This document shows positions 8,686 through 42,790 of a stretch of 53,264 bases of DNA, piece after piece. This DNA comes from a virus (taxonomy: Duplodnaviria; Caudoviricetes): positions 1-53,264 of IMG/VR virus record IMGVR_UViG_3300032315_000109, one strand, 5' to 3'. Position 1 is the stretch's first letter; each line of letters starts with the position of its first letter. The translations under genes and the position numbers were made by a program. The notes beneath the pieces were generated by a model. The model made no database searches and had not been told where the DNA came from. It worked only from the letters and a program-made list of their open reading frames with translations.

Positions 8686-9451
8686 GATTGTTTTTTAGTT
8701 GCCAAAAGTTTAAAAGAGCGCAGAACATTAACCATCCACGCCGAATATCGTCTTCTGCCCATTCGTGTACAACTGCTAGTTCTGGGTTAGAGCGAGACAC
8801 AAACACATTTGCACACTTGGCTTTAGGGTAGCCTAAACCAACCCTATAGGCTGCAAGCTGCATCATGTGTTCATCATATGGCTTGACCTTGCTGATGTCA
8901 TCAAAGTCTTTTGTCTTGATGTCCATCACAATGCCGTCACCAGTACCATCAACCGCATGCATGTCGCACTTGCCGCCAAACCCCATCTCATGCGCAAATG
9001 ACCGCTCACAAATCCATTGTTGGTCACCAAAATGGAATGCTACAGCCTTTGTGCAGGAATCTACATGGTTAGGGTATCTAGACTCTTTATTGCCCTCATA
9101 GAAGCTCTGGATGGCTGCATGGATGTCTGTACCAAGATCAGCCGCATCACGACCCTGAGTCTTTGAATCTTCCATGATGCGCTTAATATAAACAGACTCA
9201 AGCTCATCTTGGTTCTTAGGCAAGGTTAAAGCAGCAAGCAATACCTGCTCTTGTAACCAGTTTGTCAATGCTGGCTTAGCAGCTACATTCAAGACGGTGG
9301 TAACCGAGGGGACAAGGTCATGCTCTCTGGCATCCCGCAATGTAGTGTTACGGGTTTTGCCATTCTTGCCGACGATTGTGTACCTTGGCTCACCACTTCT
9401 GCTATACCAATGCCCTGACTCTGATGAGTGTGTAGTGGCAATTAAGGTCAT
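8678..9451 (-). CDS. PD-(D/E)XK family phage exonuclease
   Basis: PSVTTVL, GTDIH, E...GGKCD...DIKT and QLAAY motifs. Confidence 0.85.
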   Translation of the reverse strand: MTLIATTHSSESGHWYSRSGEPRYTIVGKNGKTRNTTLRDAREHDLVPSVTTVLNVAAKPALTNWLQEQVLLAALTLPKNQDELESVYIKRIMEDSKTQGRDAADLGTDIHAAIQSFYEGNKESRYPNHVDSCTKAVAFHFGDQQWICERSFAHEMGFGGKCDMHAVDGTGDGIVMDIKTKDFDDISKVKPYDEHMMQLAAYRVGLGYPKAKCANVFVSRSNPELAVVHEWAEDDIRRGWLMFCALLNFWQLKNNHE

Positions 9452-19050: not shown

Positions 19051-19364
19051 TGAGAGCAGCTCAATCATATCTTGAGCGCAAGAAAGACTTTTGGGAATGG
19101 CACAAAGCCAACCCAAAGGTCTGGGAATACTTTGAGAGATTCTCTCTTGAGGTTGTGCGCAAAGGTCACAAAAAGATTAGTCATTGGTTGATCATCAATC
19201 GCATTCGGTGGGAAGTGTATTTAGAAACTACTGGTGAAGAATTTAAAATCAGCAATGAATATATAGGTTGGTATGCAAGACTCTGGAGAGCTAAATATCC
19301 AGAACACAAAACCCTTTTTACAATCAAACGAATGCTGGGTGAACCAGCAGAAGCCTTGGAGTAA
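19050..19364 (+). CDS. Hypothetical phage protein
   Basis: WHKANPKVW..FERF...IINRIRWE...FKISNEY...YAR pattern; TAATG coupling. Confidence 0.75.
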   Translation: MRAAQSYLERKKDFWEWHKANPKVWEYFERFSLEVVRKGHKKISHWLIINRIRWEVYLETTGEEFKISNEYIGWYARLWRAKYPEHKTLFTIKRMLGEPAEALE

Positions 19365-19366
19365 TT

Positions 19367-19615
19367 ATGTCAGACAAAAAAGAAATTTCTTATTCAAACC
19401 CTTTTGATGCATTCAATGATGGATGTGATGTTGTCCTAAAAACTCTTGAAGAGTTTATGGAAGAGATGGATCAAACAGAGGGGCTATATGAAGCAAAGTA
19501 TAGCAAGATAAAACGCATGGTTATTGCTATGCGCGCATCTGTTGGTACTCATGGTGAGCCTGAAGAGCAGTCAGCAATTGAAGTGCCACCACAACAAATC
19601 ATTTTGCCTAGCTGA
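19367..19615 (+). CDS. Hypothetical protein
   Basis: 82 aa; GGAG RBS. Confidence 0.7.
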   Translation: MSDKKEISYSNPFDAFNDGCDVVLKTLEEFMEEMDQTEGLYEAKYSKIKRMVIAMRASVGTHGEPEEQSAIEVPPQQIILPS

Positions 19616-19619
19616 TCAA

Positions 19620-19788
19620 TGGGGGAAAGCTTCACTAAGCCGTTTCCAGCGGGACTCCTAGTCTTGGTGTTTAGTGTAGTCAGTACCCCACCAATTAAGC
19701 CCAGCCAGAGGTGGCTAATTCCTTCCCCACTTCGGTGGAAAATAACACTGGCAGCGGGGTGGCTTTTTCAAAGTTGGGTTGACCCCGC
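19620..19788 (+). ncRNA. Structured RNA cluster, part 1 (three elements: 19620-19693, 19704-19752, 19754-19788)
   Basis: GGGG/CCCC stem with GAA/AGTA internal loop and CACTAAGC/GTTTAGTG stem, ending ACCA; GCCAG/CTGGC stem with CCAC-TTCG-GTGG; GCGGGGT/ACCCCGC stem. Confidence 0.6.
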
Positions 19789-19802
19789 ATCATTAAAAAT
19801 AT

Positions 19803-19832
19803 TTACATTGAATTTTAATATAGGGTTATAAT
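19803..19832 (+). promoter_or_regulatory. Promoter with operator driving the leaderless peptide and RNA cluster part 2
   Basis: TATAAT at 19827-19832; operator TTTAAT-ATAGG-GTTATA at 19814-19830. Confidence 0.65.
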
Positions 19833-19837
19833 TTATT

Positions 19838-19921
19838 ATGGAAAGTGACATCTCAGAAAGTGCTGCATTGTTTGGGGCATTAGGAGCAATCATTGCTTGG
19901 TTGCTTGGCAAGAGAGGTTAA
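19838..19921 (+). CDS. Leaderless 27-aa hydrophobic peptide
   Basis: MESDISESAALFGALGAIIAWLLGKRG; ATG 5 nt after the -10 box, no RBS. Confidence 0.5.
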   Translation: MESDISESAALFGALGAIIAWLLGKRG

Positions 19922-19925
19922 CAGC

Positions 19926-20156
19926 CTGAGAGTTAGGATGTTGTATTTGTTTACGGCATAGCAAAAGCGATGGGACTCCTTTCCCTAGCTCTCAGCCTTT
20001 TAGCCCAAGACGCATGAGGATTGCCGTTGAGACTACTTGATGGAGCGCACAGTCCTCAGCCGTGTTGGGTGTTAAGCCAGCATTCGAGGATGTTGACGCA
20101 AATAGTTTTCTGGCTTTCCTATTTGCCTTAGTTGAAGACTAAATCGAGCCTGACAC
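19926..20156 (+). ncRNA. Structured RNA cluster, part 2 (three multi-branched elements: 19926-19995, 20003-20070, 20069-20156)
   Basis: 12-bp CTGAGAGTTAGG/CCTAGCTCTCAG; CCCAA..TGAGGATTG/CAGTCCTCA..TTGGG; four-stem cloverleaf with GCAAATAG/CTATTTGC. Confidence 0.65.
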
Positions 20157-20187
20157 ATTACATACAGCAAACTATTCGGAGATTGCT

Positions 20188-20787
20188 TTGAACTTTGAAA
20201 ACCTGTTTCCTACAGCAGTTGGGCGCTTAGATTTAAATAAGCCCTTCACAAAAAAGGAAATTCAATTCATCAATGACTTGAAGCGCCGCCCAAATGTAGG
20301 CAATGAAACTTCTGAAAACAGTTACATATTCAAATCAAAAGAACTCAAGCGAGTCTCAGACTTTATAGATAAAGCTGTCAATGATTACTTTAAAAGAGTA
20401 TTCGCACCTGAAAGAAATGTCAGGCTGTATGTTACCCAATCATGGGCTAACTACAGCAAGACTGGTCAGTTCCACCACAAACACAAACACCCAAACAGCA
20501 TTGTGTCTGGAGTGCTGTATGTAAATGCAGTACCAGAGATTGATAGGATTTATTTCTACAATGACAATGAGCCAATGCTAGACATAACTACTAAAGACTG
20601 GAATGTCTGGAACTCTAAAAGTTGGTGGTTGCCTGTGGCTACAAACAACATTGTCCTTTTCCCATCAACCCTGACTCATATGGTTGAGAATGTGATCAAT
20701 GCTGATGAGAGGGTAAGCATATCGTTTAACACATTTGTTATCGGTGAGCTTGGTGAAGAGAAATCTTTGACGGAGTTAATTCTATGA
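20188..20787 (+). CDS. 2OG-Fe(II) oxygenase-like protein (TIGR02466-type)
   Basis: LFPT start, SWAN...HHKHKHPNSIVSGVLY, LFPSTLTHMV, RVSISFN. Confidence 0.85.
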   Translation: MNFENLFPTAVGRLDLNKPFTKKEIQFINDLKRRPNVGNETSENSYIFKSKELKRVSDFIDKAVNDYFKRVFAPERNVRLYVTQSWANYSKTGQFHHKHKHPNSIVSGVLYVNAVPEIDRIYFYNDNEPMLDITTKDWNVWNSKSWWLPVATNNIVLFPSTLTHMVENVINADERVSISFNTFVIGELGEEKSLTELIL

Positions 20788-32501: not shown

Positions 32502-34751
32502 ATGGCTGATTTAAAAATCTCGGCGATGACTTCAGCTACCACCCCTCTTACGGGGACGGAGCTAATACCAGTAGTTCAAGGCGGAGCTAACAGGAAAGTA
32601 ACTGTATCTAATATTATTGCTATCGGTGGAACAGTTACATCTGCAAGCATAACAAGCGCAAATGGATTCGCAGGTACTGTAGCAACTGCAACGACTACTC
32701 CAGCTATCACACTAAGCACAACCATCACAGGCATTATCAAAGGTAATGGCACTGCACTATCAGCAGCCGTAGCAGGTTCTGATTATGCTCCTGCAACAAC
32801 TGGCACATCAATACTTTATGGTGATGGTGCTGGTGGCTTTAGCTCTGTGACAATAGGTTCAGGATTGTCTTTCACTACTGGTACTTTGGCATCTACTTCA
32901 AGTGGTGGCTCTGTTACTTCAGTGTCTGTTGCTTCTGCTAATGGTTTGGCTGGCACTGTGGCAACAGCTACAAGCACACCAGTCATTACACTCAGCACTA
33001 GCATAACTGGATTACTCAAAGGTAATGGAACAGCTATTTCAGCAGCTACTGCTGGCACTGACTATGCAGCAGCACCAACAGGTACTAATGCTCAACTGTT
33101 AGCTAATAATGGCTCTGGTGGATTTAGTAATGTAACTGTAGGCTCAGGCTTAACTTACTCAGCAGGAACTTTGGCATCAGCGGCTGGCGGTGGTTCAGTT
33201 ACAACTGTTTCTGTATCAAGTGCAAATGGTTTTGCAGGTACAGTAGCTAACCCAACATCAACTCCAGCAATTACTTTATCAACTTCAATCACAGGCATCT
33301 TGCAGGGCAATGGCACAGCAATATCTGCAATCACAGTAGGTAGCGGATTGTCATTTGCTGGTGGCACTTTATCATCCACAAGCGGTGGTGGTTCAGTAAC
33401 TTCTGTTGATGTGTCTGGTGGCTCTACAGGTTTGACTACTTCAGGTGGCCCTATTACAGGCTCTGGAACAATCACATTGGCTGGCACTTTAGCTGTAGCT
33501 AATGGTGGTACTGGGGTTACTGCATCAAGTGGTGCAAGCTCAGTTGTGTTGCGTGATGCAAGCCAAAATGCTTCAGCAAATGTATTTTTTGATAATTTCA
33601 CATTCATTGCTGCGGCTGGCACAACAACTACATTGACTGTTGCAAGTGCATACAATTATGTTATTACTGGCTCAGGTGGTCAGACAATTCAACTGCCAAA
33701 TGCAACAACTTTACCAAATGGCGCAGTATATAATTTCAACAATAATCAAAGTAGTGGTGCAATTACAGTAAATAATGCATCAGGAGGATTAATTGTTTCT
33801 ATACCATCTGGTGGTGATGTTGCTGTAACTTTATTATCTAATGCAGCTTCTGCTGGTTCTTGGGATAGGCATGATAGAGCGCCATCAAATGTATCTTGGT
33901 CAACAAATACATTTGATTATGCTGGCTCTATTACAAGTGCTACATGGAATGGCGTAACAATAGCAGTTAATAGAGGCGGCACAGGCATTACAAGTTTCGG
34001 TACTGGTGTGGCTACAGCTCTTGGTATTAATGTAGGCTCTGCTGGTGCTTTTGTAACCCTTAATGGATCACTTGGCACTCCTTCATCAGGAACATTAACT
34101 TCATGTAGTGGATTACCAATTGGTGGTGTGTCTGGATTTGGTACTGGTGTTGCGACAGCTTTAGCTGTTAACACGGGAAGCACAGGAGCTTTTGTTGTAC
34201 AAAATGGTGCATTAGGCACTCCAACAAGTGGCACATTAACTTCTTGTACTGGATTACCAATTGGTGGTGTGTCTGGTTTAGGAACTGGTGTAGCAACTGC
34301 ATTAGCTGCAAATGTTGGCTCTGCTGGCGCTCCTGTAACATTTAATGGTGCATTAGGTACTCCATCAAGTGGTACTGCATCTGGTATGACTGTTGATGGC
34401 ACTGATTCAGTTGGCTTTAGAAATGTACCAATTAACAATGTCTCTTCTGGTTCATACCCTTACTCAACAGTATTGGCTGACAATGGTAAAGCAATCTATA
34501 GACCTTCCTCAGATACTACTGCGAGAACAATTAACATTGATGCTTCTGTCTCGTACCCTATAGGAACTGCAATCACTATCATTAATAATGGCGGTTCAGG
34601 CAATTACACAATTAGTCTTACATCAGGCACATTAAAATTACTTACTTCTGCTGGTTCTACTGGTAATAGAACATTAGCTATAAATGGTATTGCAACAGCA
34701 TTAAAAGTTGAAGCAACTGTGTGGGTCATTTCAGGAAATGGGTTGACATAA
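32502..34751 (+). CDS. Fibre protein 1 with internal repeats
   Basis: MADLKIS docking-type N-terminus; repeated SVTSVSV.SANGFAGTVAT.T.TP.ITL and 47-aa GTGVATAL repeats. Confidence 0.8.
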   Translation: MADLKISAMTSATTPLTGTELIPVVQGGANRKVTVSNIIAIGGTVTSASITSANGFAGTVATATTTPAITLSTTITGIIKGNGTALSAAVAGSDYAPATTGTSILYGDGAGGFSSVTIGSGLSFTTGTLASTSSGGSVTSVSVASANGLAGTVATATSTPVITLSTSITGLLKGNGTAISAATAGTDYAAAPTGTNAQLLANNGSGGFSNVTVGSGLTYSAGTLASAAGGGSVTTVSVSSANGFAGTVANPTSTPAITLSTSITGILQGNGTAISAITVGSGLSFAGGTLSSTSGGGSVTSVDVSGGSTGLTTSGGPITGSGTITLAGTLAVANGGTGVTASSGASSVVLRDASQNASANVFFDNFTFIAAAGTTTTLTVASAYNYVITGSGGQTIQLPNATTLPNGAVYNFNNNQSSGAITVNNASGGLIVSIPSGGDVAVTLLSNAASAGSWDRHDRAPSNVSWSTNTFDYAGSITSATWNGVTIAVNRGGTGITSFGTGVATALGINVGSAGAFVTLNGSLGTPSSGTLTSCSGLPIGGVSGFGTGVATALAVNTGSTGAFVVQNGALGTPTSGTLTSCTGLPIGGVSGLGTGVATALAANVGSAGAPVTFNGALGTPSSGTASGMTVDGTDSVGFRNVPINNVSSGSYPYSTVLADNGKAIYRPSSDTTARTINIDASVSYPIGTAITIINNGGSGNYTISLTSGTLKLLTSAGSTGNRTLAINGIATALKVEATVWVISGNGLT
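33990..34380 (+). repeat. 141-bp (47-aa) tandem repeat, about 2.8 copies
   Basis: CCAATTGGTGGTGTGTCTGG at 34116 and 34257. Confidence 0.85.
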
Positions 34752-35698
34752 TGAGTGGGATACTTGGATTAATGGCAGGTGCTGTTAATACACCAACAAC
34801 TCCAAGTGGTGGAGTTCCATCAACGATTGATCTTTTAGTCGTTGGTGGGGGCGCAAGTGGAGCTACCCAATATGGTGGGGGAGGTGGTGCGGGCGGTGTT
34901 ATAGCAACCCCAGCTCAAGCTATATCTGCTGCTGTTACATACACTATAGTAGTTGGTGCAGGTGGTGCTGCTAGAACTGCTTCTGCAATGGGAGCTGCTG
35001 GAAATCCATCATCATTTACAGGAACAGCAGTTAGTATTTCTTGTGCTGGTGGCGGTGGCGGTGCATTTGTTGGCTCTGCTGGTCTAGCTGGAGCATCTGG
35101 TGGGGGTGGGGCTGGTAGGTCTACTGGCAGTGGCTCTTTGGCTGGCGGTGCTGGGAATACTCCAGCTACCACGCCATCACAAGGTAATACTGGTGGTGGT
35201 GGTTTTGCAACTGGTGGTGGAACTGATGCTCGTGGAGCGGGTGGCGGTGGCGGTGCTTATCTTGGCACTCCAAATCTTGGTATTGGTGAAACTGGTACAT
35301 CAACAAAAGGTGGTAATGGCGGCGCTGGTCAAGCTTGGAATGGCAACACATATGGCGGTGGTGGTGGTGGAGGCGTCTTTGGTAGAAGCCCAAATTCACC
35401 TAGTTATGGTCTTGGTGGCACGGGCGGGGTCGGGGGTGGGGGCAACGGTGGCAGTGCTGGTGGCGTAGGCGTTACTAATGGGGCAGATGGTTTTGGATCA
35501 GGAGGTGGTGGTTCTGGTGATAGCCTTGCGCCAGCAGGTTATTTAACTGGTAAAGGTGGAACGGGTATTGTTATTTTAATTTATCCAAGTACCTTTGCAG
35601 ATGCTACAACAATTACTGGTGCATATACTTTTGACACAACAACTTACCCCGGAAATAAAATGTACAAGTTTACTGGCAACGGAACTATTAGATGGTGA
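34751..35698 (+). CDS. Glycine-rich virion protein
   Basis: LLVVGGGASG...GGGGAGG...GGTGIVILIYP...YKFTGNGTI; TAATG coupling. Confidence 0.8.
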   Translation: MSGILGLMAGAVNTPTTPSGGVPSTIDLLVVGGGASGATQYGGGGGAGGVIATPAQAISAAVTYTIVVGAGGAARTASAMGAAGNPSSFTGTAVSISCAGGGGGAFVGSAGLAGASGGGGAGRSTGSGSLAGGAGNTPATTPSQGNTGGGGFATGGGTDARGAGGGGGAYLGTPNLGIGETGTSTKGGNGGAGQAWNGNTYGGGGGGGVFGRSPNSPSYGLGGTGGVGGGGNGGSAGGVGVTNGADGFGSGGGGSGDSLAPAGYLTGKGGTGIVILIYPSTFADATTITGAYTFDTTTYPGNKMYKFTGNGTIRW

Positions 35699-41029: not shown

Positions 41030-42790
41030 ATGCCAGTAATTATTACAAAAAATAGTTCTTCTGCTGGTGCAGTTCCGTCATCAGGTCAGTTAGTTCGTGG
41101 TGAATTAGCGGTTAATGTAACGGACAGAAAACTATATACGCTTAATGCAAGTAACAATGTTGTTCTTCTTTCTTCTGGTGAGATTACTTTAACTACTACT
41201 GGAACAAGTGGTGCGGCAACTTTAGTTAGCAATGCTTTAAATATTCCAATTTATGGAAATGGCACTGTAACAAGTTTAAGCGTTGCTTCTGCAAATGGAT
41301 TTGCTGGAACGGTAGCAACTGCCACAACAACACCTGCAATTACTCTTACAACTAGCGTTACAGGCATAATTAAAGGGAATGGTGGCGGTCTTTTTGCTGC
41401 TGTAGCTAACTCTGATTTTCAATCCCCAGTTAGTTTGACTACTCTTAACACTTCTGGTGCAGCAACATTTTCATCTAATGTATTTAACATTCCTCAGTAT
41501 CAGGGTGTCATTTCATTGACGACTACTGGTACTTCTGGTGCTGCTACATTCTCATCTAATACTTTAAATATTCCAAACTATGCGGTTGCGGTAGCTGCTA
41601 CCCCTACTGCTCTTGGTTTGGTTTTTGGTGCTACTGGTAGTGGTGCTTCAGCTAATACCTCATTAGGGAATAATGCGGCAATTAATGCTGCTGCTACTTC
41701 AGCAGTCGCTGTAGGTGTTGGGTCAACAATTGGTTCTGGTGGCGCATCTGGAACAGCAGTAGGAGGAGGTTCATCTGTTACAGGTGCAAGTGGCACAGCA
41801 ATAGGCTCTTCATCCTCATCCGTTGGAACTGGCGCTGCTTTTGGATCAGGATCAAATGTTTTAGCTACTGGGGCTGCTGCACTAGGTTATAACGCAGACG
41901 TGCAAGCTACTGGAACAAGTGGATTATCAATTGGTAATGCTGCATCAAACTCTGCCCCATCTGGTATAGCTATTGGAGCGTCAGCAAATGTTGGTGCAAC
42001 ATCAAATAATGGTATTGCTATTGGAGCAAGCGCAACAATTTTAACTTCAAATCCGGGTGCAATTGCAATTGGCAATGGAACAGGCGCAAATAATTCTGCT
42101 GTTGCGATTGGAACAAGTGCAAGCGCTCTAGCACTTAACGCTATAGCTCTTGGTGCTAATACCTCAGCTTCTGCCTCTGATACTATATCTATAGGTAGAT
42201 CAAATAATGCAGCAGTTACTCGATCAATACTGATTGGCAATCAAATTAATGGCTCTAATGGCACGATGATTGTATTAAGTACACAGTCAACTGCATTTAC
42301 ACCATTAAATGCAGGTGTGTTTATTAATGCACCAAGAAATTCTACTAACACAGCATCTTTGTCTGGTGGATCAGTACAGTGCGATCCAAATACTAAAGAA
42401 ATATTTTACACAACTGAATCTTTTAGTGCTTATGGCGTTAATTTCCAAAGACAGGCTGCGGCAACCGCATTTAGTGCTGCCGCAACCGTAACTGCTGCTC
42501 AACTAGCTACTGGAATTTTTACGTGTACTGGTGCTAGTACATATGCATTGACAATGCCAAGTGGGGCTTCAATTGATTCACAGTTTCCCATATTGGCTAC
42601 TAACAGCATTACAAATGCTTCTTTTGATCTAGCTATTATAAATAACTCAACTACAGTAGCTGTAACAATTACTGCTGGTTCTGGCACTACACTTGGCTCT
42701 GGTCAAACCTCTATTGCTGCATCAAGTTCAGCATTATTTAGGTTTCGTAGAACTGGAACTAGTGCCTATGTTTATTACAGGATTGCTTAA
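41030..42790 (+). CDS. Fibre/adhesin 3 with Mtd-like N-terminus and YadA-head-like repeats
   Basis: KNSSSAGAVP....L..GELAVNVTDRKLY; many xAIG/xALG repeats at about 14-aa spacing. Confidence 0.8.
   Translation: MPVIITKNSSSAGAVPSSGQLVRGELAVNVTDRKLYTLNASNNVVLLSSGEITLTTTGTSGAATLVSNALNIPIYGNGTVTSLSVASANGFAGTVATATTTPAITLTTSVTGIIKGNGGGLFAAVANSDFQSPVSLTTLNTSGAATFSSNVFNIPQYQGVISLTTTGTSGAATFSSNTLNIPNYAVAVAATPTALGLVFGATGSGASANTSLGNNAAINAAATSAVAVGVGSTIGSGGASGTAVGGGSSVTGASGTAIGSSSSSVGTGAAFGSGSNVLATGAAALGYNADVQATGTSGLSIGNAASNSAPSGIAIGASANVGATSNNGIAIGASATILTSNPGAIAIGNGTGANNSAVAIGTSASALALNAIALGANTSASASDTISIGRSNNAAVTRSILIGNQINGSNGTMIVLSTQSTAFTPLNAGVFINAPRNSTNTASLSGGSVQCDPNTKEIFYTTESFSAYGVNFQRQAAATAFSAAATVTAAQLATGIFTCTGASTYALTMPSGASIDSQFPILATNSITNASFDLAIINNSTTVAVTITAGSGTTLGSGQTSIAASSSALFRFRRTGTSAYVYYRIA

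Follow-up and report, generated by a model that had tools for sequence, protein, structure and literature searches.

In phage T4, small structured RNAs with acceptor-like ends, species 1 and 2, lie among the tRNA genes and probably mature through the tRNA-processing machinery. GOLLD and ROOL are large RNAs of phages and prophages that are highly structured and pseudoknotted, often lie near tRNA islands and have no known protein partner; in GOLLD the 3′ part is conserved, the 5′ part varies and the linker sometimes harbours a tRNA (bioRxiv 10.1101/2024.12.08.627333). We analyzed an IMG/VR virus record of 53,264 bases with an estimated completeness of 94% (the window) and describe within it an island at 19621–20154 of the plus strand, which contains five structured RNA modules, named E, F, A, B and C, together with a promoter-like site and a 27-aa open reading frame (ORF). 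Comparative alignments show that modules C, F, A and B belong to families that recur in uncultured phages and carry compensatory changes in their helices. The locus is probably a phage RNA island of the tRNA-gene type that lacks a tRNA, from which co-transcribed modules would be excised in a tRNA-like manner.

The closest known kind is the structured RNAs of phage tRNA islands, GOLLD and ROOL. As in GOLLD, the conserved part of the island, module C, lies 3′ of the variable modules, and in one related locus (L010) a tRNA-Gly lies between modules. Unlike GOLLD and ROOL, the island is made of separate 60–100-nt modules, which also occur singly and reordered, and neither Rfam model scored at E ≤ 10 in the window or at E ≤ 1 in seven related loci. 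Resemblance to T4 species 1 and 2 is found in the CCCC-A-CCA end of module E and in units of other phages, termed H, that have D and T arms, whereas the window, unlike the T4 cluster, carries no tRNA and its modules are unrelated in sequence. Conserved spacer hairpins, such as the B hairpins described below, are not known from T4. Acceptor-like closing helices are found in E, B and C, without a cloverleaf, and ARAGORN called zero tRNA or tmRNA genes in the whole window.

Arrays of noncoding RNAs associated with UG27 reverse transcriptases in gut phages also consist of structured units that are gained and lost singly; these units, each about 150 nt long, have a single fold in common and adjoin the reverse transcriptase (bioRxiv 10.64898/2026.09.22.753630). 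We rejected a UG27 array because RVT_1 (PF00078) had no match in the 94%-complete record and the modules have five different folds. No Rfam 15 family reached its gathering score anywhere in the window, including c4, toxic small RNA (sRNA), tRNA, tmRNA, GOLLD, ROOL, HDV-like, hammerhead, twister, pistol and hatchet. At E ≤ 10, the region 19300–20500 gave only three chance-level snoRNA/FasX matches (E 2.6–4), all outside the modules, and in sets of 14 and 7 related loci Rfam found nothing but true tRNAs. Nor did blastn of 19300–20500, or of a B-E-B array, return a match among the GenBank phages (50,697 records). A published catalogue drawn from IMG/VR lists 8,495 structured RNA candidates, including tRNA-like ones and some upstream of capsid, terminase and replication genes; it shares the data source and type of object and assigns no function (PMC10690425). 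Our literature search found no description of the present motifs, and the supplementary models of PMC10690425 may list them.

Module C (20064–20154, plus strand; 91 nt) is predicted to form a three-way junction with a pseudoknot, in which 20064–20070 and 20148–20154 form P1 and 20098–20126 the P4 hairpin. The pseudoknot of the window copy pairs AAGCCAG (20074–20080) with CUGGCUU (20110–20116) over 7 bp. All blocks of the C family are present in the window, namely the 7-bp P1, GUY-AAGCCAG, CAUUCGAGGAUG, P3, a P4 loop with UUUUCUGGYUUUC, and the CYAAAUCGA that precedes the 3′ strand of P1; about 38 positions are invariant. The exact 18-mer core of C occurs in at least 119 IMG/VR contigs and in only 2 of 185,579 species genomes (L134 and L135, metagenome-assembled genomes labelled Promineifilaceae and Opitutales). 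We extracted 112 copies, 84 of them distinct, and aligned the window with 70 others (alignment A2, 71 rows), leaving out 14 copies with a 12–35-nt insertion, 11 of which were searched and still scored 64–80 bits. In A2, 96.4% of the cells are paired, compared with 81.7% after shuffling and 30–51% in slid controls. Eighteen pairs have changed on both sides (including P1 7/7, P3 2/3, P4 6/6), a covariation score reached by 0/500 shuffles. For the pseudoknot, one strand of which was part of the search pattern, the 71 rows give counts of 66 for G-C, 5 for G-U and 1 for mismatch. Natural variants with A at pseudoknot position 17 have the matching U in 4/4 loci (three distinct sequences, chosen for the A).

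A covariance search with model R1 placed a match of full model length at 20060–20159 (99.4 bits, E 3.5e-30), a score that is partly circular since the window is a row of the seed alignment. This is the sole full copy in the window, and elsewhere there is likewise one copy per locus (89 matches in 100 sources searched). A weak partial match (15.2 bits, E 0.025), with GCUAAGCCAGCAUU in a short helix, lies at 9247–9291 on the minus strand and is possibly due to chance; we rejected it as a second copy of C.

The location of these elements between genes and RNA units, and the very high conservation of C in a compact pseudoknotted fold, would suit a self-cleaving ribozyme, with C or a B-type hairpin cutting the polycistronic RNA as proposed for HDV-like theta ribozymes. 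Phage DNA frequently encodes small ribozymes, and those of the theta type are found next to phage tRNAs (PMC10879173). We consider this explanation improbable, because no Rfam ribozyme family scored at E ≤ 10 in the window or at E ≤ 1 in seven loci, and because the strand order of C, where P1 encloses all other elements and the pseudoknot joins the junction to the P4 loop, is unlike the nested double pseudoknot of the HDV-like fold. A theta/HDV-like ribozyme was set aside, since both fold and partners differ and Rfam gave no match.

The genomic position of C brings in a different explanation. In 93 distinct loci, C usually starts 3–36 nt past a stop codon and ends 6–30 nt before an ORF on the same strand, and in the window it lies 33 nt before the start of a 2OG-Fe(II) oxygenase gene. 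The proteins encoded 5′ of C fall into the PHROG 18140 cluster (36/76), Gp2.5-like single-stranded DNA-binding proteins (SSB; 7) and a nucleotidyltransferase-like cluster (5); a PDB sequence search with the commonest of them, guessed to be an SSB, gave no match. On the 3′ side we find 5′–3′ exonuclease (17/68) and DNA polymerase (10/68), and also oxygenase, HNH, DUF5856 and ART-like proteins. A U-run directly follows P1 in 42/93 copies, and the three bases after P1 read ACC in 23/71. These contexts are those expected if C and F were cis-regulatory leaders or attenuators, acting as a riboswitch, an autoregulatory operator or a structured terminator for the next gene, here the oxygenase. Folded C with its U-run would resemble an intrinsic terminator, its invariant positions and pseudoknot recall an aptamer, its commonest neighbours on both sides are replication genes, and in other phages F lies about 25 nt before start codons. 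However, the genes 3′ of C are heterogeneous, a B hairpin precedes C in 13/93 contexts and takes the place of the following gene in 3/93, the window copy of C has no U-run, and the motif does not pair with the ribosome-binding sites. We regard a cis-acting leader as rather unlikely for this locus, and a cis-acting leader or terminator as the main rival for the many stand-alone copies of C.

Stand-alone copies between an SSB-like/PHROG 18140 gene and an exonuclease or DNA polymerase gene were observed in L022, L028, L035, L019 and many other loci. Separately, a recurrent ..GCGAAUCG..UACACUGACGA.. pattern occurs 3′ of C in L048, L051, L116, L024 and L069 and may be another module.

Modules A and B are members of one spacer-hairpin family, since the A head rides on canonical B stems in L266 and L269. 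We defined the family by a lower stem YYWAC/GACG with CGUGUUGG, an internal loop of 2–3 nt, a middle stem UGRGGAUUG/CAGUCYYCA and a variable head. Module B (20005–20068, plus strand) has a two-part stem and a simple head hairpin (20024–20043) plus AGCGCA. Its lower stem, CCAAGACG/CGUGUUGG (20005–20012/20061–20068), is followed by a small internal loop and the middle stem UGAGGAUUG/CAGUCCUCA (20015–20023/20050–20058). B thus shows every feature of the family, and its own middle stem carries a compensatory change from G-C to A-U. Module A (19917–20004, plus strand) combines a lower stem (19917–19924/19997–20004), a middle stem (19926–19936/19985–19995) and a three-way head with a hairpin at 19938–19959 and GGGACUCCUUUCCC. 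It belongs to the family through its homologous middle stem UGAGAGUUAG/CUAGCUCUCA, while its lower stem has diverged.

A 14-mer of the commoner GGGG form of B matched 117 contigs, and a 13-mer core gave 133 matches in 116 new loci and L024, of which the 42 without a 3′ partner are probably due to chance. The resulting B family holds 91 distinct hairpins in 78 IMG/VR loci, with heads of 27–213 nt. Rare variants of the lower stem are compensatory, for example GCCAUACG/CGUAUGGA. For the head subtype of the window (alignment A3, 9 sequences), 96.9% of the cells are paired, G-U pairs are numerous and eight pairs have changed on both sides (0/500 shuffles). The 18-mer of A was found in 29 IMG/VR contigs, with 14 distinct full copies including the window, and their alignment (A5, 14 rows) has 93.1% paired cells and eight pairs changed on both sides (0/500 shuffles).

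Two kinds of processing signal resemble the B hairpin. In the early mRNAs of T7, intergenic RNase III hairpins, in which an internal loop divides a lower from an upper stem, separate the units of polycistronic RNAs. B has the same succession of elements between units, but its sequence is far more conserved than RNase III needs, and its heads are variable and sometimes branched. In mascRNA, at the 3′ end of MALAT1, and in mitochondrial tRNA punctuation, a tRNA-like helix directs RNase P and 3′ cleavage. Here the likeness lies in the middle stem of B, GGGGAUU/AGUCCCC (7 bp) followed by an unpaired A, and in the T-loop hairpins of some B heads (GGUUCGAAUCC in L002). Unlike mascRNA and tRNAs, the tail of B reads A-GCC rather than A-CCA, and neither ARAGORN nor the Rfam tRNA model made a call. 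A perfect T-arm-like hairpin, GGNNGUUCGAWUCNNCC, was seen on a small junction in the B heads of L009 (the L002 contig, 1620–1680), L232, L249, L184, L187 and L146; ARAGORN called no tRNA at these heads.

Module F (19699–19788, plus strand) consists of two helices, Pa with GCCAG/CUGGC (19704–19708/19748–19752) and Pb with GCGGGG/CCCCGC (19754–19759/19783–19788), and a conserved AGGUGGC..AUAACA..GCAG..UGA. The family traits, GCCCAGC, Pa, the AGGUGGC..AUAACA loop, GCAG and Pb closed after UGA, are all found in the window. In alignment A4 (10 sequences), 98.2% of the cells are paired, 7 of the 11 pairs have changed on both sides and the covariation score was reached by 0/500 shuffles. A CCAC-UUCG-GUGG hairpin (19727–19738) is an insertion in the Pa loop common only to the window and L010, which has CUGC-UUCA-GUAG in its place, so that CCAC/GUGG is replaced by CUGC/GUAG. 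We considered 19722–19770 as an intrinsic terminator, given a CCCC..GGGG fold with UGGCUUUUU (z −2.53), but GCGGGG pairs with the downstream CCCCGC to form Pb across 10 relatives, and the scan did not list this segment. A link between F and the small peptide of the 27-aa ORF was also rejected, as elsewhere F precedes unrelated larger ORFs. In L219 (about 8570, minus strand orientation), F lies just 5′ of an ORF with a KIDGTN motif, which reads as a putative ligase-type motif.

Module E (19621–19693, plus strand) has a GGGG/CCCC closing helix, GAAA opposite AGUA in a loop-E-like arrangement and a long hairpin of irregular pairing; its 3′ tail reads A-CCA. The traits of its family are a short closing helix, a 5′ GAAAG opposite a 3′ GAGUA and usually GCGGAUGC...GCAGCG. 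The closing helix covaries, and all five closing pairs are present in 20/21 relatives, as GUUGG/CCAAC, GUCGG/CCGAC or GGGGG/CCCCC, a count biased by the regular expression that selected these relatives and demanded the motifs. In the window, the closing helix, GAAAGC and CAGUA are present and GCGGAUGC/GCAGCG is missing, a comparison made against the same selected relatives, whose alignment is poor and unusable for pair counts. L010 keeps both ends of E (GGGGGAAA...GAGTACCCCACC) around a different interior. Membership of the window copy in this family is therefore plausible rather than proven.

The G+C content of the island is 0.48–0.53, compared with about 0.38 nearby. Against 200 shuffles each, the folding of A (z −3.95) and B (z −4.74) was matched by none, whereas as good a fold was found in 9/200 shuffles for E (z −1.82), 17/200 for F (z −1.49) and 13/200 for C (z −1.47), whose pseudoknot lies outside the score. 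The minus strand of the island folded no better than shuffles. Across the four module alignments A2–A5, G-U cells number 219 and A-C cells 36, so that the folds belong to the sense strand, as expected of RNA.

This asymmetry bears on the suggestion that the B-type inverted repeats act in DNA, as attC-like recombination sites or as packaging or replication signals, and that the units are shuffled cassettes. Integron attC sites fold as bottom-strand hairpins with RYYYAAC/GTTRRRY cores and lie next to an integron integrase. B indeed has two conserved arms around a variable center of 27–106 nt at unit borders, the start of a unit follows GUUGG and its end is CCAAC, relatives differ by the presence or absence of whole modules, and arrays lie upstream of terminase genes. 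However, helices this rich in G-U and poor in A-C fold well on the sense strand only, integrases are absent from the recurrent neighbours of the B loci, and the internal helices of C covary independently of any repeat. We judge a DNA-level element highly improbable. A and B as attC sites proper were rejected, since the cores fit only loosely (..CCAAC/GUUGG..), the sense strand is favoured and no integrase recurs as a neighbour.

A preliminary description of this segment had proposed about six back-to-back RNAs, likened to phage c4/CI RNAs and betaproteobacterial toxic sRNAs, with anti-Shine-Dalgarno seed loops. Several of its observations stand. The sequence does contain GGGGG (19621–19625)...CCCC-A-CCA (19686–19693), GAAA (19626–19629) opposite AGUA (19682–19685), the CCAC-UUCG-GUGG hairpin at 19727–19738, TTCCTTCCCC at 19720–19729, three copies of TGGCT (19712, 19760 and 20111) and two of GGGACTCCT (19651 and 19972), the last with a chance expectation of 0.09 copies in the window and at least two copies in 0/100 shuffles. 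Several real structured RNAs do lie in tandem on one strand, covariation with homologous phage loci lends strong comparative support to C, B, A and F, and the idea of conserved closing stems with variable interiors is borne out, most clearly in the A/B hairpin family. The count of six gives way to five, as 19790–19921 instead holds the promoter-like site (TATAAT at 19827–19832) and the 27-aa ORF. Rfam found no family for any module, and neither c4 nor toxic sRNA families score even at E ≤ 10, which leaves any such kinship without a match.

The seed loops fared no better. Trans-acting antisense sRNAs would pair their loops (CUCCU, UUCCUUCCCC) with the Shine-Dalgarno sequences of host or phage mRNAs, and in favour of this are the pyrimidine-rich motifs themselves, the excess of GGGACTCCT and a fairly conserved loop, AAUCCUUUCCC, in the A family. 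Yet the motif is altered in the two nearest relatives (GGGAAUCCU, GGGAUAACCU), with GGGAATCCT for GGGACTCCT in L002 and GGGATAACCT in L010. The copy in E lies within a stem and is missing from the E module of L010, and UUCCUUCCCC falls within the insertion found in only 2/10 F units. Together with the absent Rfam matches, these points make an antisense function hardly tenable.

Relatives of the locus were sought via the oxygenase gene, which gave 7 viral and 6 metagenome loci; only L002 and L010 among these 13 contain the modules. Whole modules are gained or lost as units between these close relatives, as comparison of their sequences shows. L002, whose oxygenase has 98% protein identity, lacks E and F (19621–19790), so that the upstream stop codon abuts the promoter-like site, and a short repeat, ATCAAT/ATCATT, flags the junction in the window. 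The B head of L002 is replaced by one of 57 nt with a T-loop hairpin, GACGGTTCGAATCCGTC. L010 (oxygenase 84% identical) has two extra ORFs, a B with a 105-nt head and an intact tRNA-Gly(UCC) at 1487–1562, exactly between A and B; in the window this site is the junction of TTTTAGC and CCAAGACG (19998–20012), as if a precise loss or gain had occurred. One DNA contig joins 19985 to 20050 and is thus without B. L003 and L011 (81% protein identity) have a different gene upstream.

In other phages the modules are arrayed with B-type hairpins between them, sometimes with true tRNAs or tRNA-like units. The units that follow the 91 B hairpins are E-type (13), G-type (10), tRNA-like H (6), D (5), I (4), C (1) and other (52); the H count is 6 by the stricter pattern and 8 by the looser one. 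H units have a D arm, a T arm and an acceptor GUUGGUG/CACCAAC around an abnormal middle. The 3′ strand of the B hairpin overlaps the closing helix GUUGG.../...CCAAC of the next unit, and an A-type hairpin of L269 takes the CCA of tRNA-Tyr as its first bases and stops 4 nt short of tRNA-Gly. The tRNA-like ends noticed earlier are thus present, and the picture of a polycistronic, processed battery of RNAs is a reasonable one because arrays in other phages combine the same modules with tRNAs and tRNA-like units. Of the 78 B loci, 30 have TerL on the same strand at a distance of no more than 2.5 kb, and it is 3′ of the array for 24/30 ORFs counted; the window has the same order, with the island upstream of the terminase genes.

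We return to an island of the tRNA-gene type as the probable explanation. The modules would be transcribed together with the flanking genes, A, B and C on a transcript running from the promoter-like site into the oxygenase and packaging genes. Their excision could be tRNA-like, with RNase P cleavage and trimming of the 3′ end, or a double-strand nuclease could act at the spacer hairpins. The products would be small, stable RNAs whose action depends on binding to proteins or RNAs and not on antisense seeds. Several observations weigh against this proposal. Canonical tRNAs are rare near the modules, with 0/91 B hairpins having one within 15 nt, any tRNA in only 8/78 B loci and a tRNA near C in 3/122 loci; these counts led us to reject a general link of C or B to tRNAs, and the association rests on few loci and the tRNA-like units. 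Most copies of C stand alone after a stop codon and before an ORF, with a U-run in 42/93, an arrangement that suits a cis-acting terminator or leader no less than it suits an excised RNA. Support for E is weaker and selection-biased, given regex-selected relatives and a poor alignment. A and C are each 97% identical to L002, equal to the 97% of the oxygenase ORF, so that pairwise conservation alone is uninformative. The sigma-70 scan did not call the promoter-like site, whose 19-nt spacer is outside its spacing. Finally, one 231-nt contig of a freshwater metatranscriptome spans 20050–20222 in the L002 form, which indicates presence only and could be carried-over DNA. RNA run X7 had no cover across 19560–20049, and runs with a small share give no indication of habitat.

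A broader proposal is more tentative. The modules may represent a new and widespread toolkit of uncultured phages, comprising small RNAs on tRNA-like stems linked by spacer hairpins, with at least one member that has a biochemical function of its own. C would be the best candidate for such a member, given its about 38 invariant positions, its pseudoknot and its usual place, with an SSB-like gene on one side and an exonuclease or polymerase gene on the other. Its possible roles include those of a new ribozyme, of a new ligand- or protein-sensing control of replication genes, and of a tRNA mimic that interacts with tRNA enzymes or defences of the host. Such strong conservation is rare among structured RNAs, and earlier motifs of the kind proved to be ribozymes, riboswitches or large RNA assemblies. 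Neither an Rfam model nor a match in the 50,697 GenBank phage records was found for the four or five families described here, whereas they are present in uncultured phage contigs numbering from at least dozens to more than 100. The suggested general design is one of diverse modules on acceptor-like closing stems, with one conserved spacer hairpin between them and sometimes real tRNAs. Should the tRNA machinery excise the modules, phages would possess a natural 'tRNA scaffold' system for stable small RNAs, and phage tRNA islands would be broader RNA factories. The module families can also serve as markers for annotating phage genomes.

Between F and A lies the promoter-like site (19802–19832, plus strand), with TTTACA (19802–19807), a 19-nt spacer and a perfect TATAAT (19827–19832). 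It differs from L002 at 2 positions in 49 nt, the TATAAT is also kept in L010, and we infer that it is a promoter. The 27-aa ORF, MESDISESAALFGALGAIIAWLLGKRG (19838–19921, plus strand), is predicted to encode a small membrane peptide, and the lower stem of module A includes its stop codon. Its hydrophobic core AALFGALGAIIAWLLG is unchanged in L002 through five synonymous changes, with ORF DNA only 82% identical, and the counterpart in L010 is MKDETSESAALFGALGAIIAWLLGKRGFC. The peptide matched no Pfam family, and its back-translated pattern matched only the contig of L002 across IMG/VR. The ORF has no Shine-Dalgarno sequence and the TATAAT ends 5 nt before its ATG, so that it is possibly translated from a leaderless mRNA.

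Genes of the window run on the plus strand, with a C5 methylase, a phosphoesterase and small ORFs upstream of the island and the 2OG-Fe(II) oxygenase, an Sf6-type small terminase TerS (22601), TerL (23394) and the portal downstream. The oxygenase gene (20188–20787, plus strand; Pfam PF13759, E 2.5e-19; PHROG 81) has a TTG start 33 nt past the end of module C, preceded by a Shine-Dalgarno GGAG at 20178–20181; the same protein starts with ATG in L003. By large terminase, the nearest cultured phages are Caulobacter phages (53% protein identity). Among more distant oxygenase relatives (43–51% identity), tRNA-Leu(UAA) and tRNA-Arg(UCU) lie directly 3′ of the oxygenase gene in L004–L008, and tRNA-Arg(UCU) lies about 260 nt 3′ of it in L013; the phage oxygenase thus tends to adjoin RNA genes. 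Elsewhere in the window, diverged direct repeat families of 141–285 nt at 32600–35400 and 41200–42700 fall in large late genes and are probably tail-fibre-like repeats rich in Gly, Ala and Thr. In the array-bearing phage L150 (2303–4546), the large terminase is 748 aa long and has a weak intein-splicing domain match inside.

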